Assembly: GCF_050920415.1 (NCBI RefSeq)
Contig: NZ_CP169309.1
Direction: 5' to 3' (one strand)
DNA from: Escherichia coli
Lineage (GTDB): Bacteria; Pseudomonadota; Gammaproteobacteria; Enterobacterales; Enterobacteriaceae
DNA length: 64,000 bases
Positions 3,780 to 48,887 of the stretch are shown in pieces. The stretch's first letter is position 1. Each line of letters begins with the position of its first letter. Below the pieces are notes generated by a model that worked only from the letters and a program-made list of their open reading frames with translations, was not told the origin of the DNA and did no database searches. The position numbers were made by a program, and so were the translations under genes.

Positions 3780-4550
3780 CGTATGGCAGATACCTCTTCA
3801 ACCACCGCTGGCGCACAAACGTTATTACGCGGGCTGGCGGTTCTTAATGCTGTTTATAACGGCTGCCATGACCTGAAAAGTATCGGCGAGTTCACCGGCA
3901 CGACCCGGAGCACAACCCATCGTTTAGTCACCGTTCTGGTGGAACAACGCTACCTGCGCCACGTCCCAACGCAGGGCTACCAACTGGGCGCCAAACTGAT
4001 CGAATTCGGTGCCAGAGCGCTGGAAAGCACCTCGCTGTACGAAGTTGCGCTGCCCGTTTTGCAACGCCTTGCCCGTTACACCCTGGACACCGTGCATCTG
4101 GGGATCGTTGAAGGCGACGAAGTGCTGTATCTGGAGAAGATCAACAGCCAGCGCGGGCTGGAAATGCGCTCACGCCCAGGCCATCGCATGCCACTGGCAA
4201 TCACCGGCATCGGCAAGGCATTGATCCTCAACCGAACAGAAGAAGAGTGGCGCACGCTGTTTAAGACCTGTGGTGATGAAACAAAACTGGGCGCATTTAT
4301 TCAGAACATGCGTCGTTATGCCGCCAGTGGTTTTGCTTTTGATCTGGAAGAGAACGAGCCGACTATCCGTTGCGTTGCAGCGCCGGTTTACAACGCCCGG
4401 GATGAAATTGTGGCGGCTATTTCTGTCGCCAGTACCACTACGTATATGTCACTGGCGCGTCTGGAAGAACTGGCACCTTACGTCAAATCCTGTGCAGAAG
4501 AGATATCCGCTGAACTGGGCTGGGGTAAGCACGTTCACAAAAATAAATAA
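3780..4550 (+). CDS. IclR-family transcriptional regulator, 256 aa
   Basis: Track frame 3696..4550; start set at ATG 3780 (MADTSSTTAGAQTLLRGLAVLNAV...) with AGGAG 6 nt upstream; N-terminal HTH then effector domain typical of IclR/KdgR-type regulators. Confidence 0.8.
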   Translation, partial: RMADTSSTTAGAQTLLRGLAVLNAVYNGCHDLKSIGEFTGTTRSTTHRLVTVLVEQRYLRHVPTQGYQLGAKLIEFGARALESTSLYEVALPVLQRLARYTLDTVHLGIVEGDEVLYLEKINSQRGLEMRSRPGHRMPLAITGIGKALILNRTEEEWRTLFKTCGDETKLGAFIQNMRRYAASGFAFDLEENEPTIRCVAAPVYNARDEIVAAISVASTTTYMSLARLEELAPYVKSCAEEISAELGWGKHVHKNK

Positions 4551-4573
4551 ACCATGACTAAAGGAAACGGCTA

Positions 4574-5578
4574 ATGTCGGGAAACACCTCATTTATTGCC
4601 CTGGACTGGGGAACGTCATCGCTTCGGGCATGGCGTTTTGGCGACTCACCCAATCCACAAGAAAAACGTGAATTCCCGTGGGGGATCATGAAATTACCCT
4701 CCCAGGCAGCAACACGTGAGGACGCTTTCCACGATACGTTTTTACGTGTCTGCGGCGACTGGCTGGCACAATCCCCATGCCCGATTCTGGCTTGCGGCAT
4801 GATCGGCAGTGCGCAAGGGTGGCAACCCGCAGCTTATTTACCTTGCCCGGTCACTCTCGAGGGTCTGGCAAAGCAGTTGACGCCTGTTATCTACCAGCAG
4901 CAGACAATGCTGCACATCATTCCCGGCGTGATTAAAGAAGGTGAAATGCCCGAAGTGATGCGTGGCGAAGAGACACAAATCTTCGGTGCTATCTCGATGG
5001 AACCGGCCCTGCAAAACGCGCTCCGCCAGGGTATGCCTGTGCTGATTGGCTTACCTGGCACACATGCGAAATGGGCGGTAGTTGAAAACAACACCATTAC
5101 CGATTTTCGAACCTTTATGACAGGCGAGTTATTTGATGTTTTATCCCGCCATTCGATTCTCGGTGCCACCATGCGTTCGGGAGATGAACCGCACTGGGAT
5201 GCCTTCGCCCACGGGCTGACAGCGGCACAAGAGCATCATCAGACCGGATTATTATCGACGCTGTTTTCGACCCGTTCGCGCCTGCTGACCAGTAATCTTA
5301 CGCCGTCCTCACAGGGGGATTACCTTTCAGGATTACTGATAGGCCATGAATTATGCGGTCTGGCATCCAGTTTGCTACGTGATTTACCCGCCACAACACC
5401 GATCGCCTTAATCGGTAGCGCCACTCTGAACAGCCGCTATTCACAAGCATTCAGCCACGTTTTTCCCGACAGACAGCTACACGCCATTCCTAATGCCACT
5501 GAACAGGGGTTATGGCGAATCGCCCACGCTGCCGGGCTACTCTCCACCAACGCCAGGGAATGTACTCATGCCATTTAA
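4574..5578 (+). CDS. 2-dehydro-3-deoxygalactonokinase (DgoK)-family sugar-acid kinase, 334 aa
   Basis: MSGNTSFIALDWGTSSLRAW..., ...MRGEETQIFGA..., ...FRTFMTGELFD... align with my recollection of E. coli DgoK; about 40 aa longer at C-terminus. Confidence 0.75.
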   Translation: MSGNTSFIALDWGTSSLRAWRFGDSPNPQEKREFPWGIMKLPSQAATREDAFHDTFLRVCGDWLAQSPCPILACGMIGSAQGWQPAAYLPCPVTLEGLAKQLTPVIYQQQTMLHIIPGVIKEGEMPEVMRGEETQIFGAISMEPALQNALRQGMPVLIGLPGTHAKWAVVENNTITDFRTFMTGELFDVLSRHSILGATMRSGDEPHWDAFAHGLTAAQEHHQTGLLSTLFSTRSRLLTSNLTPSSQGDYLSGLLIGHELCGLASSLLRDLPATTPIALIGSATLNSRYSQAFSHVFPDRQLHAIPNATEQGLWRIAHAAGLLSTNARECTHAI

Positions 5579-6197
5579 TACGCTTTTGCAAAAAACCGGG
5601 TTAGTCGCCATTTTACGCGGCGTGAAACCGGATGAGATTGTCGCCATCGGTGAAAAGCTGTATGCCTCTGGATTTCGCCTGATTGAGATTCCCATGAACT
5701 CGCCGGAGCCGTTGCAAAGTATCAGTTTACTGCGCGACGCCCTGCCTAAGGACTGCCTGGTCGGAGCCGGAACTGTGCTTTCGGTGGAGCACGTCGTCGC
5801 GGTTAAAGAGGCTGGAGGCCAGATTATCGTGATGCCGCATTGCGATACTGCGGTGATCCGTCGTGCCCGTGCGCTGGGTATGTATTGTGCGCCTGGCGTC
5901 GCTACGCCCACCGAAGCTTTTGCTGCCATTGAGCATGGTGCTAATGCCATCAAGCTGTTCCCGGCTGAACAAATTACGCCTGAAGTCACCAAAGCCTGGC
6001 GTGCGGTTATTCCACAATCCGTTCCGATGTTACCGGTTGGCGGTATCACTCCGGAAACCATGGCGCGTTATCTGAGCCACGGTGCAAACGGCTTTGGTCT
6101 CGGTTCTGCGCTTTATCGCCCTGGCATGACGCCAGAGCAGGTCTATAAAAATGCAGTACTGTTTATGAACGCATGGACCAATTTAAACAACAACTAA
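5568..6197 (+). CDS. KDPG/KDPGal-aldolase family protein (DgoA-like), 209 aa
   Basis: Track frame 5493..6197; start set at ATG 5568 (MPFNTLLQKTGLVAILRGVKPDE...), overlapping the kinase gene by 11 nt; aldolase motifs AILRG, GAGTVL, PVGGIT. Confidence 0.75.
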   Translation: MPFNTLLQKTGLVAILRGVKPDEIVAIGEKLYASGFRLIEIPMNSPEPLQSISLLRDALPKDCLVGAGTVLSVEHVVAVKEAGGQIIVMPHCDTAVIRRARALGMYCAPGVATPTEAFAAIEHGANAIKLFPAEQITPEVTKAWRAVIPQSVPMLPVGGITPETMARYLSHGANGFGLGSALYRPGMTPEQVYKNAVLFMNAWTNLNNN

Positions 6198-6221
6198 CTG
6201 ATAAATAAGGATATAAAAACA

Positions 6222-7196
6222 ATGATAAAACATCTTACCTTACCGAAAAAAATGGCTGCAATGGTACTCCTTGCCGGCGCTTCCCTCAGCACTGCGCCTG
6301 TGCAGGCGGCCTCCTACCCAACCAAACAGATCGAGTTAGTCGTACCCTACGCGGCCGGAGGCGGTACGGATCTGGTTGCCCGTGCCTTTGCTGATGCCGC
6401 CAAAAACCATTTGCCCGTCAGCATCGGGGTTATCAATAAACCTGGCGGTGGCGGCGCTATCGGCCTGAGTGAAATCGCCGCTGCCCGCCCTAACGGTTAC
6501 AAAATGGGTTTAGGCACGGTTGAACTGACCACCCTTCCCAGCCTCGGAATGGTGCGTTTTAAAACCAGCGACTTTAAACCCATTGCCCGTCTGAACGCGG
6601 ATCCGGCTGCTATCACCGTCCGTTCTGATGCGCCGTGGAATAGCTATGAAGAATTTATGACTTACGCCAAAGCGAATCCCGGAAAAGTACGCATTGGTAA
6701 CTCAGGCACCGGAGCAATCTGGCATCTGGCGGCAGCTGCACTGGAAGACAAAACGGGCGTGAAGTTTTCTCATGTCCCATATGACGGCGCAGCCCCTGCC
6801 ATTACAGGCCTGTTAGGCGGGCATATTGAAGCGGTTTCCGTAAGCCCAGGTGAAGTTATCAATCATGTGAAAGGCGGCAAGCTGAAGACACTGGTAGTGA
6901 TGGCGGATGAACATATGAAAACCATGCCTGACGTACCGACGTTAAAAGAGAAAGGCGTTGATCTCTCCATCGGCACCTGGCGCGGTCTGATCGTGTCGCA
7001 AAAAACGCCGCAGGATGTGGTTGATGTTCTGGCTAAGGCCGCAAAAGAGACGGCTGAAGAGCCTGCATTCCAGGATGCTCTGCAAAAGTTGAATCTCAAC
7101 TATGCATGGCTTGATGGTGCCAGCTTCCAGACCCAAATCAACGAACAGGAAAAGTACTTTGACGAGTTACTAACTCGGCTGGGCTTGAAAAAATAA
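6222..7196 (+). CDS. tctC: Tripartite tricarboxylate transporter (TTT) periplasmic substrate-binding protein, TctC/Bug family, 324 aa
   Basis: N-terminal signal peptide (MIKHLTLPKKMAAMVLLAGASLSTAPVQA); AAGGGTDL motif typical of TctC/Bug proteins. Confidence 0.8.
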   Translation: MIKHLTLPKKMAAMVLLAGASLSTAPVQAASYPTKQIELVVPYAAGGGTDLVARAFADAAKNHLPVSIGVINKPGGGGAIGLSEIAAARPNGYKMGLGTVELTTLPSLGMVRFKTSDFKPIARLNADPAAITVRSDAPWNSYEEFMTYAKANPGKVRIGNSGTGAIWHLAAAALEDKTGVKFSHVPYDGAAPAITGLLGGHIEAVSVSPGEVINHVKGGKLKTLVVMADEHMKTMPDVPTLKEKGVDLSIGTWRGLIVSQKTPQDVVDVLAKAAKETAEEPAFQDALQKLNLNYAWLDGASFQTQINEQEKYFDELLTRLGLKK

Positions 7197-7212
7197 TCCC
7201 GAGGTACGGTCG

Positions 7213-7719
7213 ATGAACACAAAACAGTCTGTTGCTCAACTCGCCGTACCGCACCGCAAGCGCCTTTCATCCACTGTGGTGGTGGCGCTGTTACTTTGTG
7301 TGGTTGCTGGCGCGGTGATAATTAATGCCGCTGATTTTCCAGCAACTGCCATTGAAACGGATCCCGGTGCAAGTGCCTTCCCTACTTTCTATGCCTGCGC
7401 TCTGATTGTGCTCGCTGTCTTACTGGTGATACGCGATCTTTTGCTGGCAAAACCAGTCCCTTGCGCCAACGCACAGGAAAAACCGGCATTAAGGAAAACG
7501 GCAACAGGAATTGCGGCAACCGCGTTTTATATTGTGGCGATGAGCTACTGCGGTTATCTCATTACTACTCCTGTTTTCCTCATCGTCATTATGACGTTGA
7601 TGGGCTACAGGCGATGGGTACTCACACCGGGTATTGCGCTGCTGTTAACGGCAATCCTCTGGTTGCTGTTTGTCGAAGCGTTACAGGTGCCATTGCCTGT
7701 CGGCACATTTTTCGAATAA
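7213..7719 (+). CDS. tctB: TTT small membrane subunit TctB, 168 aa
   Basis: Small hydrophobic multi-TM protein between tctC-like and tctA-like genes. Confidence 0.75.
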   Translation: MNTKQSVAQLAVPHRKRLSSTVVVALLLCVVAGAVIINAADFPATAIETDPGASAFPTFYACALIVLAVLLVIRDLLLAKPVPCANAQEKPALRKTATGIAATAFYIVAMSYCGYLITTPVFLIVIMTLMGYRRWVLTPGIALLLTAILWLLFVEALQVPLPVGTFFE

Positions 7720-7731
7720 CAGGGGCCTGCA

Positions 7732-9222
7732 ATGTTTGAAAGTGAACTTTTAACTCAGGGGTTTTCGACATTACTCAGTAATCCTCAGGCGCTGCTGTTT
7801 GCCACGTTTGGAGTGATGCTGGGTATTATGATTGGCGCTCTGCCTGGCCTGACAGCGACCATGGGTGTGGCGATTTTGCTGCCTTTCACCTACGGCATGG
7901 AGCCTGTTTCTGGCTTATTGATGATTTGCGGTGTCTTTTTTGGTGGTGTGTATGGTGGTTCTATCACCGCAATTTTGCTCAAAATTCCCGGTACACCTGC
8001 CGCCGCTGCCACCGCCATTGACGGATATGAGCTGACGAAGCAGGGAAAAGCCGGGCTGGCGTTAAGTGCCGCCACGTTCTCTTCTTTTAGCGGTGGAACG
8101 CTCAGCATTATCGTATTGATGTTTCTCTCTCCGGTACTTGCCAGTTGGGCGTTGAAATTTAGTGCCTCGGAGTCCTTCGCCCTGGCAACCTTCGGGCTAA
8201 GTATTATTGCCAGTATTTCCGGTGAGTCACTGATTAAAGGGCTGATTGCCGGGGTTGGCGGATTGCTGATCGCAACGATAGGCCTTGATCCAATGGGCGG
8301 TTTTCCACGCTTTACAGGTGGATTTGTGGAGCTGATGAATGTGCCATTTATCCCGGTGATGATTGGTCTGTTTGCTGCTTCAGAAGCATTCCGCTCTATG
8401 GAGCAAAACCAGCAAATTCGTCAGGGGGCGAAGGTGGCTATCGGCAGTCTGTTACTGCCCTGGCAAACACTACGCCGCATCGCATTAACCATTTTGCGCT
8501 CATCAGGATTAGGGGTTTTTATCGGCATGATCCCCGGTGCGGGGGCAGATATTGCAGCTTTTGTTGCCTATAACGAAACTCGTCGTTTCAGTAAGACGCC
8601 TGAAAACTTTGGTAAGGGTGAGATTAAGGCGGTGGCCTCCTGTGAGGCAGGCGCGAATGGCTGCACCGGTGGCGCATTGTTACCTATGCTGACGTTGGGG
8701 ATCCCAGGCGATGCGGTAACTGCCATCATGCTGGGCGCGTTAACGTTACAAGGGATGCAGCCAGGCCCACTGATGTTTACCGACCACGGCGATATGGTTT
8801 ATACGCTGTTTGTCGGCATGATCTTTTGTTACTTCATGCTGCTAGTTCTTGGACTGCTCTCTTTGAAAGTCATCGGTAACGTGGTGAAGATCCCCGGCAA
8901 TATTCTCACGCCGATGATCCTCGCGCTTTGTGTTGTTGGGACTTATGCGCTGAACAACAGCCTGTTTGATGTTGGCATTATGCTGATTGCAGGCGTGGTG
9001 GGCTATTTCATGCAAAAAGGGGGGTATCCGGCGTCACCCGTAGTGCTGGCATTGATTATGGGGCCAATGGCGGAAAGTAATTTTCGCCGTGCGCTGTCGC
9101 TTTCAGGGGGGTCACTCGACTTCCTGTATACCCGACCGATAACCCTGGCATTGCTGACTCTGGCAGCCTTTACGCTACTGACGCCAATAATACGCAAAAT
9201 TATGCGCTTACGGCGTCAGTAA
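7732..9222 (+). CDS. tctA: TTT large permease subunit TctA, 496 aa
   Basis: About 500-aa polytopic membrane protein with Gly-rich helices, directly after tctB-like gene. Confidence 0.8.
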   Translation: MFESELLTQGFSTLLSNPQALLFATFGVMLGIMIGALPGLTATMGVAILLPFTYGMEPVSGLLMICGVFFGGVYGGSITAILLKIPGTPAAAATAIDGYELTKQGKAGLALSAATFSSFSGGTLSIIVLMFLSPVLASWALKFSASESFALATFGLSIIASISGESLIKGLIAGVGGLLIATIGLDPMGGFPRFTGGFVELMNVPFIPVMIGLFAASEAFRSMEQNQQIRQGAKVAIGSLLLPWQTLRRIALTILRSSGLGVFIGMIPGAGADIAAFVAYNETRRFSKTPENFGKGEIKAVASCEAGANGCTGGALLPMLTLGIPGDAVTAIMLGALTLQGMQPGPLMFTDHGDMVYTLFVGMIFCYFMLLVLGLLSLKVIGNVVKIPGNILTPMILALCVVGTYALNNSLFDVGIMLIAGVVGYFMQKGGYPASPVVLALIMGPMAESNFRRALSLSGGSLDFLYTRPITLALLTLAAFTLLTPIIRKIMRLRRQ

Positions 9223-12107: not shown

Positions 12108-12812
12108 TTGGCATTTCCCGATAACTACAATCGTCTGTTTATACCACGGCCAAAAACTAAAGATGATAATGGCCTCAAAACACTCAATAGTAAAGCTGTT
12201 GGCAGACTGCTTGCTGCTGGCGGCATATACAATGGGAATATCGAAGGATTCAGGGAAACAGCAAACAAGTTGGGGGGAGATGCACCTGCTGGTTACGATC
12301 AAGTTATGGATAACAAAGGGTTACTCATCGCTGGTGCTTCAATAGTTGCTGGAGCAGTTCTGGGGAGAATGAGACTCCCTGATTTGGAATCACTTGAGCA
12401 TTTCGGAGCCAGAGGAGCAGTATCAGGAAGACCATTTAATCCCGACCTTGCCGGTGGTCCAATAGAAAATCTGACGACAGATGGCGTAACAATCAACAGG
12501 GAAGGTATCGCTATTGTTGAAAAACACATAGCCAGATTTGGTCATGACCCTGTAAATGAAGTGATGATCAATAGACTGAAAGACATTGAGAAAGGAAAAA
12601 TCCCCCCAGAACAAGTAGATCTTAACTTCTATACTCATGAATGTCGGGAATATCAGCGTTACTGTAATCTTGGTTGGGAAACAGGACAACCTGATGGTGA
12701 CGCAGGCTATGCACTCTGGAATCATACGCATACTGCTACTCTAGAAGATTATAAACTTAAGGGAGAACTTAATGACTTATACCACCAGGATGCACTTGAC
12801 TATGATAACTGA
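12108..12812 (+). CDS. Toxin-like C-terminal domain ORF (class undetermined), same frame as upstream Hcp ORF; 234 aa from TTG
   Basis: Same reading frame as 11664..12062 with only one stop (TAA 12060-12062) and 15 open codons between; no ATG or SD of its own. Confidence 0.6.
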   Translation: MAFPDNYNRLFIPRPKTKDDNGLKTLNSKAVGRLLAAGGIYNGNIEGFRETANKLGGDAPAGYDQVMDNKGLLIAGASIVAGAVLGRMRLPDLESLEHFGARGAVSGRPFNPDLAGGPIENLTTDGVTINREGIAIVEKHIARFGHDPVNEVMINRLKDIEKGKIPPEQVDLNFYTHECREYQRYCNLGWETGQPDGDAGYALWNHTHTATLEDYKLKGELNDLYHQDALDYDN

Positions 12813-34896: not shown

Positions 34897-35084
34897 TATG
34901 GATTGCCTGTAAAGTTCATCGCTTTCTGCTTTCTATCATCGCAGGAGAAGACGTAAAAGCAAGCGTTTAGCGACTCTTTATGAAGTCTGAAAAATGAGGA
35001 ATTGCTGCGAGTATAACGCTTACACGTGGGGATTTATGTTTTGCTGGTAGTTTCGTGATCGGCACCTCGCGCCAGGATGGCTTT

Positions 35085-37112
35085 ATGCACTATCGCAATG
35101 TGGTTTGTTTGTTGTCTTTTTTAGTTCCGTCAGCGTGGGGATGCTCGCTCGGTGAACCTGATCATAATATTTACCAGAAACAGGGAAAAGGCGTGGTATA
35201 CCTGCGCCCTAATGAAGAGACAAATCTTTCGTTACCGGAAGTAAATTACCAGCGACTGCGTCGTTTACCTGATTTATTCATTGCTCCTGACACCCAGGAC
35301 GATGGGGAAAAAGAACCGCCGTTAAACGACCTTACCACCGATTATATTGATCAGGGCGCATGGGCCTGGTATCCAAATTATGCTTACTTTAGCGATGGCC
35401 GTTTTGTCATTTATGCGGGCAAGATTGTACAAAATCCATCTGGTTATCCACCGGTCGATGTAGCCTCGTTCCATTCATGGGGCGATTTTGCCGTCGATAA
35501 AAACAGCATTTATTACAAAGGCCAACGGACAGATGAAAATGGCGGCAAGCAACGCGTCGATGAAAAAACGCTGCGCAAAGTAGGATTAGGTAGCCGTTGG
35601 ATGCCTGATCGGCTGGGATTGGTGCTACGTGACGCGCATTTTCTTTATATCGATGGGCACCGTTTTGATAACCCAGAGAGTTTTTCCGTGATCGCGCAAA
35701 AATCCTGGGGTCAACAAGGGAAATTCGCTTCAACGTTTTTTCCCTGCATTGCCTACCCCTTTGGCCCGTGGGATATGCTTACCCGCACACGAACAAAGTT
35801 GCTGATCAATGGAGAGCAACTGGATGCCGATCCGGACAATTTTTCTGTCGTTCGCTGGATGCCCGGCACCCTGTTTAGCTGGCGTGATAAACACGGCGAG
35901 CATCGTAAAGTCATTGATCAGGTTCGTTTGGCAAGGAATGAAGATATATCCCGGCAATGTGACAACTTTACGCTGTTAGAAAAAAAGGTGTTCTGGCGCA
36001 AGGGGCCAGATTGTGAGCAGGAAGAATTACCCAGTCTCGACCCGGAGCAGTTTCACCCGATCAGTGACATCGTGGCGCAGTATCAGGACAAGTTGTATGC
36101 AATCAGTAAGACCCCCTTCGGTGAAAATCAGTTGGAGATCATCACCCTGGATAACCCGAATCTGATCATCAATAAACGTTTTAATGCAGGAAGGCATCAT
36201 GGCTATTTACTCACCCGATCAACAAATTGGGACGGACATGAGAAAGACGGTTTACAGGTGTTTGAATCCGTTGGCCCACTGATACTGCTGGACTACCGTG
36301 TGCCGAATGAAGCAGATGCACACCGTGGCAATAACCCGCATTACAAAAAATGGTTTGCTCGCGACGATCGTTACGTTTATGCATTCGATGGTGCGCAGCT
36401 TTGGCGTTACCCTACGCAATATCCCAAAGCGGCACGTATCAAAGCCGCTAAAGACGACTGGCTGAACGTCAGCCTTAGCCAGTTGGACGGTGAGATAATG
36501 AAAGATGGCTCATTTACTCCCACTGGCATCAAGCACACATCCTCTTTAAAACCCGCCAAGGCATACGAAGATGGGGACAATGAATCTTCATTTATCGTAA
36601 ATAAATCGGGAGTAGGCTGGCGAAAAGCGCTTTCACCCGACCTGCAATGGAGTGAGTGGCATTACCTGGAAGGCATTGATCCAAAAAAGTTTCATCTGAT
36701 TACCGAACGTATTGCACAGTACAAAAACCAACTCTACGTCGTCAGGCGCTCGCATTTTGGAGAAGATCGGCTCGAAATCATAGAGTTGGAGTCATCTTTG
36801 CCCATCAAAAATAAACCGATAAATACGGGCAAGGAGCGTCATTACTTTCTGCAAAGTACCCGACAAAAACAGGATGTGCAGGTATTCACCAGCAGCGGTG
36901 CGCTGATAGCAACGGAGCGCTTTGCTTATGACGATAGCTATGTCTACACCTGGATTGACGATCAGCTTTATCGCACACCCTCCCCCTGCCCAGCGAAAAC
37001 ATACGTCAGAGAAAAGAATGTCCGTGAAATTCATAACAGCGACATTATTATTCCGGTGACGGAGGAATCGTGCCGGAACGCAGCAGCAGACGGGCAAACT
37101 TTGAAGCCCTGA
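35085..37112 (+). CDS. Large secreted DKNYY-repeat family protein, 675 aa from ATG (685 from upstream GTG)
   Basis: Signal peptide MHYRNVVCLLSFLVPSAWGC; motif DKNSIYYKGQR; two internally duplicated segments (FHPISDIVAQYQDKLY...FGENQLEIITLD / FHLITERIAQYKNQLY...FGEDRLEIIELE); AGGA 9 nt before ATG 35085. Confidence 0.7.
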   Translation: MHYRNVVCLLSFLVPSAWGCSLGEPDHNIYQKQGKGVVYLRPNEETNLSLPEVNYQRLRRLPDLFIAPDTQDDGEKEPPLNDLTTDYIDQGAWAWYPNYAYFSDGRFVIYAGKIVQNPSGYPPVDVASFHSWGDFAVDKNSIYYKGQRTDENGGKQRVDEKTLRKVGLGSRWMPDRLGLVLRDAHFLYIDGHRFDNPESFSVIAQKSWGQQGKFASTFFPCIAYPFGPWDMLTRTRTKLLINGEQLDADPDNFSVVRWMPGTLFSWRDKHGEHRKVIDQVRLARNEDISRQCDNFTLLEKKVFWRKGPDCEQEELPSLDPEQFHPISDIVAQYQDKLYAISKTPFGENQLEIITLDNPNLIINKRFNAGRHHGYLLTRSTNWDGHEKDGLQVFESVGPLILLDYRVPNEADAHRGNNPHYKKWFARDDRYVYAFDGAQLWRYPTQYPKAARIKAAKDDWLNVSLSQLDGEIMKDGSFTPTGIKHTSSLKPAKAYEDGDNESSFIVNKSGVGWRKALSPDLQWSEWHYLEGIDPKKFHLITERIAQYKNQLYVVRRSHFGEDRLEIIELESSLPIKNKPINTGKERHYFLQSTRQKQDVQVFTSSGALIATERFAYDDSYVYTWIDDQLYRTPSPCPAKTYVREKNVREIHNSDIIIPVTEESCRNAAADGQTLKP

Positions 37113-42152: not shown

Positions 42153-43361
42153 ATGACGGAACAAGAAAAAACCTCCGCCGTGGTTGAAGAGACCAGGGAG
42201 GCCGTGGACACCACGTCACAACCTGTCGCAACAGAAAAAAAGAGCAAGAACAACACCGCATTGATTCTCAGCGCGGTGGCTATCGCTATTGCTCTGGCGG
42301 CGGGCGTCGGTTTGTATGGCTGGGGTAAACAACAGGCCGTCAATCAGACTGCCACCAGCGATGCCCTGGCTAACCAACTTACGGCACTGCAAAAAGCCCA
42401 GGAGAGCCAAAAAGCCGAGCTGGAAGGCATTATCAAGCAACAAGCTACGCAGCTTGAACAGGCGAATCGTCAGCAAGAAACGCTGGCAAAACAGCTGGAT
42501 GAAGTCCAACAAAAGGTCGCGACTATTTCCGGCAGCGATGCTAAAACCTGGCTGCTGGCTCAGGCTGATTTCCTGGTGAAACTCGCCGGACGGAAGCTGT
42601 GGAGCGATCAGGACGTCACGACCGCTGCAGCGTTGCTGAAAAGTGCAGATGCCAGCCTGGCGGATATGAATGACCCGAGTCTGATTACCGTTCGTCGGGC
42701 AATTACCGATGATATCGCCAGCCTTTCTGCGGTATCGCAGGTGGATTATGACGGCATCATCCTTAAGCTGAATCAGCTTTCTAATCAGGTAGATAACCTG
42801 CGTCTGGCCGATAATGACAGCGATGGTTCACCAATGGATTCCGACGGTGAAGAGCTTTCCAGTTCCCTCAGCGAATGGCGTATCAATCTACAAAAAAGCT
42901 GGCAGAACTTTATGGACAACTTCATTACGATTCGCCGTCGTGATGACACCGCCGTACCACTGTTAGCACCGAATCAGGATATCTATCTGCGCGAAAATAT
43001 TCGCTCCCGCCTGCTGGTCGCGGCACAAGCCGTACCGCGTCATCAGGAAGAGACTTATCGCCAGGCGCTGGAGAATGTCTCCACCTGGGTACGTGCTTAC
43101 TACGATACTGATGATGCCACCACCAAAGCGTTCCTCGACGAGGTGGACCAGTTAAGCCAGCAAAATATCTCGATGGATCTCCCGGAAACTCTGCAAAGCC
43201 AGGCGATGCTGGAAAAACTGATGCAGACGCGCGTGCGCAATCTGCTGGCGCAACCAGCAGCAGAGGCTAAACCTGCACCTGCACCTGCACCTGCACCTGC
43301 ACCTGCACCTGCACCTGCACCGCAAGCTGATACTCCGGCAGCCGCGCCGCAAGGAGAATAA
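42153..43361 (+). CDS. hemX: HemX membrane protein, 402 aa
   Basis: [48 protein letters not shown]...; C-terminal (PA)8 tract. Confidence 0.9.
43272..43319 (+). repeat. Perfect hexanucleotide tandem repeat (CCTGCA)x8 inside hemX, encoding (Pro-Ala)8
   Basis: Counted directly in sequence. Confidence 0.85.
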
Positions 43362-43363
43362 CC

Positions 43364-44560
43364 ATGCTAAAAGTGTTATTGCTCTTTGTGTTGCTGATTG
43401 CGGGGATCGTGGTCGGCCCGATGATTGCCGGTCATCAGGGTTACGTGCTGATCCAGACCGATACCTACAATATCGAAACCAGCGTCACGGGCCTGGCGAT
43501 CATTTTGATTCTGGCGATGGTAGTGCTGTTTGCCATTGAGTGGCTACTGCGGCGGATCTTCCGCACAGGCGCACACACCCGTGGGTGGTTTATCGGACGT
43601 AAGCGTCGCCGTGCCCGTAAGCAGACCGAACAGGCGCTGCTGAAACTAGCGGAAGGCGATTATCAGCAAGTTGAAAAGCTGATGGCGAAAAATGCCGATC
43701 ACGCTGAACAACCGGTGGTGAACTATCTGCTGGCTGCCGAAGCCGCGCAACAACGCGGTGATGAAGCACGCGCCAACCAACATCTGGAACGCGCAGCGGA
43801 GCTGGCCGGCAACGACACAATTCCGGTAGAAATCACCCGTGTACGTCTGCAACTGGCCCGTAATGAAAACCATGCAGCACGTCACGGCGTTGATAAGCTG
43901 CTGGAAGTTACGCCACGCCATCCGGAAGTATTACGTCTGGCGGAACAGGCGTATATCCGCACTGGTGCATGGAGTTCGCTGCTGGATATCATCCCATCAA
44001 TGGCAAAAGCCCACGTTGGCGATGAAGAGCATCGTGCAATGCTGGAACAACAGGCATGGATTGGCCTGATGGATCAGGCGCGTGCCGATAACGGTAGCGA
44101 AGGTTTGCGTAACTGGTGGAAAAACCAAAGCCGGAAAACGCGTCATCAGGTGGCGTTACAGGTGGCAATGGCGGAACATCTTATTGAATGTGACGATCAT
44201 GATACTGCCCAGCAAATTATCATCGACGGCCTGAAACGCCAGTATGACGATCGCCTGCTGCTGCCGATCCCGCGTCTGAAAACCAATAACCCGGAACAGC
44301 TGGAAAAAGTGCTGCGCCAACAGATCAAAAACGTGGGCGATCGCCCGTTGTTGTGGAGCACACTGGGTCAGTCGCTGATGAAGCACGGAGAATGGCAGGA
44401 AGCATCGCTCGCCTTCCGCGCAGCGCTGAAACAACGTCCGGACGCCTACGATTACGCATGGCTTGCCGACGCGCTGGACAGACTGCACAAGCCGGAAGAA
44501 GCCGCAGCGATGCGTCGCGATGGCTTGATGTTAACGTTGCAGAACAACCCGCCACAGTAG
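43364..44560 (+). CDS. hemY: HemY TPR-containing membrane protein, 398 aa
   Basis: MLKVLLLFVLLIAGIVVGPMIAGHQGYVLIQTDTYNIETSVTGLAIIL... Confidence 0.95.
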   Translation: MLKVLLLFVLLIAGIVVGPMIAGHQGYVLIQTDTYNIETSVTGLAIILILAMVVLFAIEWLLRRIFRTGAHTRGWFIGRKRRRARKQTEQALLKLAEGDYQQVEKLMAKNADHAEQPVVNYLLAAEAAQQRGDEARANQHLERAAELAGNDTIPVEITRVRLQLARNENHAARHGVDKLLEVTPRHPEVLRLAEQAYIRTGAWSSLLDIIPSMAKAHVGDEEHRAMLEQQAWIGLMDQARADNGSEGLRNWWKNQSRKTRHQVALQVAMAEHLIECDDHDTAQQIIIDGLKRQYDDRLLLPIPRLKTNNPEQLEKVLRQQIKNVGDRPLLWSTLGQSLMKHGEWQEASLAFRAALKQRPDAYDYAWLADALDRLHKPEEAAAMRRDGLMLTLQNNPPQ

Positions 44561-44609
44561 CTCTTTCTCACCCGGAGGCAAGCACCTCCGGGACCTTTCT
44601 GATATATAA

Positions 44610-44814
44610 AAAAACGCCTGCTCTTATTACGGAGCAGGCGTTAAAACAGGTCTGTATGACAACAAGTGGGTGCTTCACTCAACGTTGTGTCCATGGTGTC
44701 TGATGAGGCATAAGCGACATCTGTCAGTGGACGATAAGCACCGTAAACGGCTCTGCGTCATTCCGGAGTTTATGAGGCACTAAGGCGAACATAAGAGATG
44801 GAATGAGCATCTAC
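44610..44814 (-). ncRNA. glmZ: GlmZ small regulatory RNA, including its intrinsic terminator
   Basis: Minus-strand sequence GTAGATGCTCATTCCATCTCTTATGTTCGCC...CAGACCTGTTTTAACGCCTGCTCCGTAATAAGAGCAGGCGTTTTTTT matches my recollection of GlmZ; hemY-aslA spacer is its known location. Confidence 0.8.
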
Positions 44815-48450: not shown

Positions 48451-48527
48451 TGGTCGGCGAGAGAGGATTCGAACCTCCGACCCACTGGTCCCAAACCAGT
48501 TGCGCTACCAAGCTGCGCTACTCGCCG
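48451..48527 (-). tRNA. proM: tRNA-Pro (UGG)
   Basis: Minus strand CGGCGAGTAGCGCAGCTTGGTAGCGCAACTGGTTTGGGACCAGTGGGTCGGAGGTTCGAATCCTCTCTCGCCGACCA. Confidence 0.9.
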
Positions 48528-48569
48528 AAATACTGCTTTTTGAATTTTTAGTTCAATTCTTTAAAGTCG

Positions 48570-48656
48570 TGGTGCGAGGGGGGGGACTTGAACCCCCACG
48601 TCCGTAAGGACACTAACACCTGAAGCTAGCGCGTCTACCAATTCCGCCACCTTCGC
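48570..48656 (-). tRNA. leuT: tRNA-Leu (CAG)
   Basis: Minus strand GCGAAGGTGGCGGAATTGGTAGACGCGCTAGCTTCAGGTGTTAGTGTCCTTACGGACGTGGGGGTTCAAGTCCCCCCCCTCGCACCA. Confidence 0.9.
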
Positions 48657-48676
48657 ATTGTCACAACTTCTAATAA

Positions 48677-48753
48677 TGGGGTGGCTAATGGGATTCGAAC
48701 CCACGACAACTGGAATCACAATCCAGGGCTCTACCAACTGAGCTATAGCCACC
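48677..48753 (-). tRNA. hisR: tRNA-His (GUG)
   Basis: Minus strand GGTGGCTATAGCTCAGTTGGTAGAGCCCTGGATTGTGATTCCAGTTGTCGTGGGTTCGAATCCCATTAGCCACCCCA, with extra 5' G. Confidence 0.9.
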
Positions 48754-48810
48754 ACTACAAATCTTGTTACGCGGTATTACTACCACCGCAGCTCAAGCGC
48801 CGGGACTAAA

Positions 48811-48887
<77 letters not shown>

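Follow-up and report, generated by a model that had tools for sequence, protein, structure and literature searches.

The closest described counterpart of the repeat considered here is CVN014, which the literature presents as a 6-bp locus of the generic E. coli MLVA (GECM-7/GECM-10; Lindstedt et al. 2007, cited in PMC8143711, PMC5217547, PMC3519732 and PMC3407997). It is reported to be the most polymorphic locus of that scheme, with 9 alleles, a range of 4–15 repeats and a diversity of 0.83 (PMC3519732). In a Swedish collection, 2–12 repeats were found (PMC5217547), and the locus is variable inside clones, for example ST131 (PMC3407997). CVN014 is amplified with TCCCCGCAATCAGCAAMACAAAGA (F) and GCAGCRGGGACAACGGAAGC (R), and the number of copies is calculated as (PS-111)/6 (PMC8143711). 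For coding VNTR loci of O157 such as rcnA, rates of ~1e-5 to 1e-3 have been obtained in serial passage (PMC3777172). A further in-frame repeat is that of tolA (Zhou, Michiels and Aertsen 2012, PMC3477136).

We have analysed a hexanucleotide repeat in the hemX gene within a 64,000-nucleotide stretch of E. coli DNA (the window). We find that it is very probably a hypermutable and harmless VNTR, in which whole units would be gained and lost by slippage in a length-tolerant tail of the protein. The positions of the features discussed are collected in Table 1.

Table 1 Features in and around hemX (positions refer to the window)
Feature	Position	Strand	Basis and remarks
hemX CDS, 402 aa	42153..43361	+	ORF; Pfam PF04375; AlphaFold2
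Left flank, with 9 nt deleted compared with the common E. coli allele	43254..43271	+	AAEAK versus AAGTTEAK; CVN014 reverse-primer site missing
Perfect (CCTGCA)x8 tandem repeat	43272..43319	+	Sequence read and TRF; (Pro-Ala)8, HemX residues 374-389
hemX last 13 codons and stop	43320..43361	+	Sequence read; final codons contain the hemY Shine-Dalgarno GGAG (43353-43356)
hemY CDS	43364..44560	+	ORF; annotated hemY in matching genomes; starts 3 nt after the hemX stop
CVN014 forward primer, exact site	43383..43406	-	Inside the 5' end of hemY; 0 matches expected by chance
GlmZ sRNA	44608-44814	-	Rfam, 218 bits; just downstream of hemY
Four-tRNA cluster after aslB	48454-48887	-	Pro, Leu, His and Arg per sibling-genome annotation
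685-aa ORF between lptM and cyaY	35055-37112	+	Hypothetical protein in sibling-genome annotation
Accessory-looking cluster between rmuC and udp	~3783-9222	+	Sibling-genome annotation

The tract and the C-terminal tail of HemX

The eight uninterrupted copies of CCTGCA that the original prediction had placed near the end of hemX were confirmed by reading the sequence and by Tandem Repeats Finder (43271–43321, period 6, 8.5 copies, 100% matches, score 102). The array is directly seen to be pure, with an A immediately before it and CC immediately after. Its score is the highest in the window, the runner-up reaching 57, and in 64 kb of random sequence one would expect ~3e-21 perfect hexamer tracts of 8 copies. 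The tract opens on a codon boundary of the 402-residue ORF, where AAEAK precedes (PA)8, and the predicted reading as (Pro-Ala)8 close to the C-terminus of HemX therefore stands. It lies in the coding sequence and not in a promoter. A coding role on the opposite strand was rejected, since no minus-strand ORF of at least 80 residues in the window's ORF list overlaps the tract. An RNA element was also rejected, because Rfam gives nothing at this position and only GlmZ and the four tRNAs nearby.

The protein belongs to the HemX family, with a match to PF04375 over residues 130–363 (E = 3.4e-108, 361 bits against a gathering cut-off of 25.9), and the gene order hemC-hemD-hemX-hemY is that annotated in matching genomes. 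A hydrophobic segment lies near the N-terminus (residues ~36–57, with the hydropathy peak at residue 36). The AlphaFold2 model, built on 61 diverse homologues, has a mean pLDDT of 82.5 and shows one long helix, 36–126, followed by a helical domain that extends to residue 366. Residues 367–402 form a Pro/Ala-rich tail, predicted as coil, along which the pLDDT drops from 72 to 50. A sequence search for a solved structure of the family returned none.

These positions do not bear out the description of the repeat as a linker. The sole recognisable domain precedes the tract, which is directly seen to lie outside it, and only 13 residues follow; there are not folded domains on both sides, as there would be in an inter-domain Pro-Ala linker. 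The tract sits instead in a C-terminal tail beyond the Pfam domain, and, as judged from the model, this tail is probably disordered. It is also variable in the family as a whole. Among 60 diverse representatives, chosen from a family that counts over 5,800 clusters, the segment that follows the domain has a median length of 12 residues and a range of 3–85, and is unconserved.

Closer relatives share more of the tail. A Pro/Ala/Thr-rich tail ending in ...APQGE is retained in HemX of Escherichia, Citrobacter and Salmonella, and this retained make-up could, going by the sequences, reflect a constraint on composition. At least part of the conservation of ...APQGE arises because the QGE codons overlap the Shine-Dalgarno sequence of hemY, GGAG. 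The hexamer itself also occurs in hemX of Citrobacter gillenii, where ~5 units form a pure run, and is absent from the one Salmonella hemX examined. The sharing of the hexamer with C. gillenii indicates that the seed of the repeat predates E. coli. Strong expansion and variability of the unit are, in the alleles compared, documented here for E. coli only.

The RefSeq product name of hemX in all matching genomes is uroporphyrinogen-III C-methyltransferase. No SAM-dependent tetrapyrrole methylase domain was found in the protein by the Pfam scan, which returned HemX and weak sub-threshold matches only. The name appears to be a historical misnomer, to which neither the domain content nor the predicted membrane-anchored, all-helical fold gives support.

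One HemX variant from an ENA contig (P0001, 485 aa) carries an 83-residue internal tandem duplication (HQEETYRQ...TEAKPA), which ends where the Pro-Ala tract begins. It could be real, with its junction at the tract, or an artefact of assembly.

Several features of the neighbourhood may be recorded here. In strain 2020CK-00188, an insertion of ~640 bp with a 591-nt hypothetical ORF (L001 4447–5083) lies between hemY and glmZ; the window is without it. The 685-residue ORF matches no Pfam family above threshold and gives a weak DKNYY match only (E = 0.004). As the region is conserved apart from this ORF, it has the appearance of an accessory insertion. The cluster between rmuC and udp consists of an IclR-family regulator, a 2-dehydro-3-deoxygalactonokinase-like gene, an aldolase and a tripartite tricarboxylate transporter (TctC/B/A-like).

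Correspondence to the typing locus CVN014

The CVN014 forward primer has its exact site inside the beginning of hemY, and the limit of this site falls 87 nt past the end of the tract. For the reverse primer, no match exists in the window even when up to 3 mismatches are allowed. Its site is missing because a deletion of 9 nt in the left flank, equivalent to three residues (GTT), removes it. On the common allele, the reverse primer maps to positions 1638–1657 of one fetched locus (L002) and starts 24 nt upstream of the tract. This locus can be aligned with the window over 3.3 kb (95.5%) and, since it also carries the reverse-primer site, the two are orthologous even though the primer itself fails in the window. 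The remaining properties agree as well. The unit, CCTGCA, has 6 bp; the two flanking distances add up to the published offset (24 + 87 = 111, that is, 111 + 6n); and the locus is polymorphic, with n = 0 and 2–14 in fetched genomes and steps of 6 nt in a sample of 60 database matches. Thus, judged by primer position, unit and amplicon length, the CCTGCA tract of hemX is shown to be the established E. coli typing locus CVN014, and the feature is one already known.

In the searchable literature, we found no link between hemX and a VNTR or MLVA locus; the MLVA papers, in their searchable text, do not name hemX, and hemX together with MLVA leads to an unrelated Salmonella paper. CVN014 is now tied explicitly to the 3' end of hemX and to the Pro-Ala tail of HemX, a link absent from those papers. 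There was no support for the idea that the tract is the O157-specific locus O157-19/TR7. A PulseNet O157 primer, presumably that of VNTR-19, is absent from the window and maps to rcnA in O157 genomes. No literature tying the unit CAGGTG to VNTR-19 was found, nor any evidence placing the hemX tract in O157-specific schemes.

The deleted flank is rare: apart from the window, 3 of 5,426 complete genomes have it. It carries 3, 6, 8 and 9 copies of the unit, 6 in strain MFDS1022581 and 8 in the window. As its reverse-primer site is missing, the published CVN014 assay can be expected to yield no product or to score a null allele in this lineage. In silico MLVA would be better anchored on the flanks of the tract than on the reverse primer. 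The tract-side anchors are GAAGCTAAA on the left in the common haplotype, GAGGCTAAA in the deleted-flank haplotype, and CCGCAAG on the right. Typing of the deleted-flank alleles should become possible again with a reverse primer redesigned to lie further upstream, for example in CTGATGCAGACNCGCGTGCG. The origin of the window outside E. coli had been raised as a possibility by identities of at most 97.2% in the first search, and was set aside because these values are explained by repeat-length gaps together with the rare hemX haplotype.

The deletion also bears on the length of the protein. The original prediction had contrasted the 402 residues found here with 393 for K-12, and the latter value fits a K-12-like genome, in which hemX has 1182 nt including the stop, encodes 393 residues and contains 2 copies. 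Tract length does contribute to this difference, the six extra units adding 12 residues, but it is not the whole of it, since the 9-nt deletion takes away 3. A gap of 9 residues cannot arise from units of two residues alone and needs the deletion besides.

Variation in copy number and its origin

A 351-nt query spanning the tract matched 5,425 of 5,426 complete E. coli genomes. We took 60 matches at even steps down the ranking of the 5,425, a collection that is biased, and obtained the spectrum of copy number from them. Match lengths in this sample lie between 324 and 396 and are all of the form 324 + 6k. The approximate numbers of genomes (in brackets) are n = 2 (9), 3 (3), 4 (5), 5 (10), 6 (9), 7 (6), 8 (5), 9 (4), 10 (3), 11 (2), 12 (1), 13 (1) and 14 (1), with one genome at n = 0. 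The Nei diversity worked out by hand from these counts is ~0.89. No sampled copy number exceeds 14, and this may be a sign of a ceiling imposed by selection or by a bias towards contraction.

Seventeen E. coli loci were fetched and their units counted, the window (n = 8) being additional. Sixteen of them show a pure (CCTGCA)n with identical junctions, where n = 2, 3, 3, 4, 5, 6, 6, 7, 8, 9, 9, 10, 11, 12, 13 and 14. In the seventeenth, NCTC11023 (L018), the whole tract and a further 15 nt are deleted, a natural tract-less allele which shows that a viable isolate can dispense with the Pro-Ala repeat. Two genomes labelled O157:H7 differ, having 5 and 8 copies. This comparison of hemX alleles between strains had been put forward with the original prediction as its check, and copy number does vary, from 2 to 14 in sixteen of the fetched loci and 0 in one. 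The length change is in frame, as was also expected: it occurs in units of 6 bp, the alleles keep the C-terminal PQ..APQGE and the stop, and the length of HemX differs between strains. The locus does not behave as a phase-variable ON/OFF switch, the unit being 6 bp and in frame, the tract lying outside the promoter and the stop being unchanged in all alleles. Throughout the tract, a single Pro codon alternates with a single Ala codon, which points to expansion at the level of the DNA and not to selection on the peptide.

The pace of change can be judged from one strain, MFDS1022581, the single genome that is 100% identical to the window over the 2.8 kb upstream of the tract; most others are ~97.5% identical. 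Over 8.8 kb around hemX, the two have 0 mismatches and one gap of 12 nt, which falls in the tract (8 versus 6 copies). Extending the comparison to 63.3 kb adds five SNPs, an indel of one base and an IS2 insertion. The IS2 of MFDS1022581 (L007 11513–12842) corresponds to window position ~12217–12220, between a tssD pseudogene and a truncated HNH endonuclease gene, and is not in the window. It and the hemX tract are the only structural differences between the two in 63 kb. A change of two units at a distance of five SNPs in 63 kb, together with the 3, 6, 8 and 9 copies on one rare flank haplotype, argues for fast change of the tract. On the genomes compared, the tract changes much faster than point mutations accumulate in its vicinity. 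Variation on one haplotype, and between near-identical genomes, is in both cases directly observed.

We consider it very likely that the tract is a hypermutable, harmless in-frame hexanucleotide VNTR, for which we infer slippage as the source of variation and near-neutrality as its fate. Perfectly repeated CCTGCA units would misalign during replication (slipped-strand mispairing), and whole units of 6 bp would be gained or lost. Each step would give one Pro-Ala pair more or fewer, with the frame, the hemX stop and the hemY ribosome-binding site all preserved. Length changes would be tolerated and would accumulate by mutation and drift, leading, in circulating E. coli, to copy numbers from 2 to 14 and to an occasional complete loss. 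We infer this tolerance because the tail lies outside the domain, is of low complexity and predicted to be unstructured, and is variable in length across the family. Comparable VNTRs of 6–7 bp in E. coli O157:H7 are reported to change at rates of 4e-5 to 1.8e-3 in serial passage (PMC3777172). A counterpoint to slippage is that contractions of the longer tolA repeat are RecA-dependent (PMC3477136).

Among the alternatives, adaptive tuning of length has most to be said for it, although we think it improbable. Here, (Pro-Ala)n would be a semi-rigid spacer whose length adjusts the function of HemX, for example the periplasmic reach of its C-terminus, with certain copy numbers favoured in certain niches. 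The Pro/Ala-rich composition kept in Escherichia, Citrobacter and Salmonella would be consistent with this, as would the same CCTGCA unit in C. gillenii hemX. Repeat number in tolA modulates the stress tolerance of E. coli (PMC3477136), and HemX has been discussed as a distant homologue of Mic60 with a possible role at membrane contact sites (bioRxiv 10.1101/2022.06.14.496148). Beyond the tract, however, there is no folded element but 13 residues only. The length and composition of the tail are unconserved across the family, the natural isolate NCTC11023 is without the tract, and near-identical genomes differ in copy number. A more specific form, by analogy with Mic60, seems to us distinctly improbable: HemX, as a Mic60 relative without the mitofilin domain, would use the (Pro-Ala)n tail as a selected, tunable spacer towards a partner in the outer membrane or periplasm. 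If this were so, slippage would adjust that contact between lineages, and hemX would be a "rheostat" contingency gene in the manner of tolA.

It is very unlikely that the differences in copy number come mainly from homologous recombination, with import of whole hemX alleles, and not from local slippage. E. coli does recombine, the RecA dependence of tolA contractions (PMC3477136) fits such an account, and the flank SNPs QADT/QGDT/QADA indicate that several hemX haplotypes are in circulation. The identity of the flanks nevertheless speaks against it, since the window and MFDS1022581 are two units apart with zero mismatches in 8.8 kb. The rare deleted-flank haplotype has four copy numbers, and every common flank haplotype also spans many.

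Still harder to credit is an effect of copy number on the expression of hemY, through mRNA structure or translational coupling and not through HemX. The geometry is suggestive, with 44 nt between the tract and the hemY start codon, which lies 3 nt past the hemX stop, but the unpaired probability from Shine-Dalgarno to AUG, a prediction only, stays at 0.26 whichever n between 0 and 20 is taken, and the frame and the position of the stop relative to hemY are constant. An origin of the variation in faulty assembly or sequencing of a low-complexity tract we regard as extremely unlikely, for although repeats can mis-assemble and P0001 has its suspicious 83-residue duplication, single reads span the 48-bp tract, all differences come to whole multiples of 6 and consist of pure units, and independent PCR fragment sizing in several laboratories gives the same range of ~2–15 repeats (PMC3519732, PMC5217547).

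Comparison with known repeats

Taken as a slipping repeat in a tolerant tail, the hemX tract carries low biological weight. It would be a textbook in-frame VNTR in a dispensable-looking tail, used for E. coli typing since 2007, with no sign of a new mechanism. Alternating Pro-Ala sequences occur in the OmpA hinge, in TonB and in the linkers between the lipoyl domains of pyruvate dehydrogenase E2, where they are expected to be extended and flexible and to join two folded or functional modules. The hemX tract has the alternating Pro-Ala in common with these spacers and differs in that nothing folded comes after it.

The tolA repeat (Zhou, Michiels and Aertsen 2012, PMC3477136) is closer in kind. 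Like the hemX tract, it is in frame, variable between strains and located in an envelope protein anchored in the inner membrane, in which the length of a non-globular segment changes. The two differ in their setting: the tolA repeat lies between functional domains and alters stress and phage phenotypes, whereas the hemX tract is in a terminal tail. The rcnA (yohM) typing repeat is, like the hemX tract, a 6-bp in-frame repeat of a chromosomal gene used in MLVA; the gene and the unit are different.

With CVN014, the correspondence is one of identity. The allele in the window departs from the published locus in being without the reverse-primer site, and the hemX tract and CVN014 agree in their range of ~2–15 repeats and in their top-ranked diversity.
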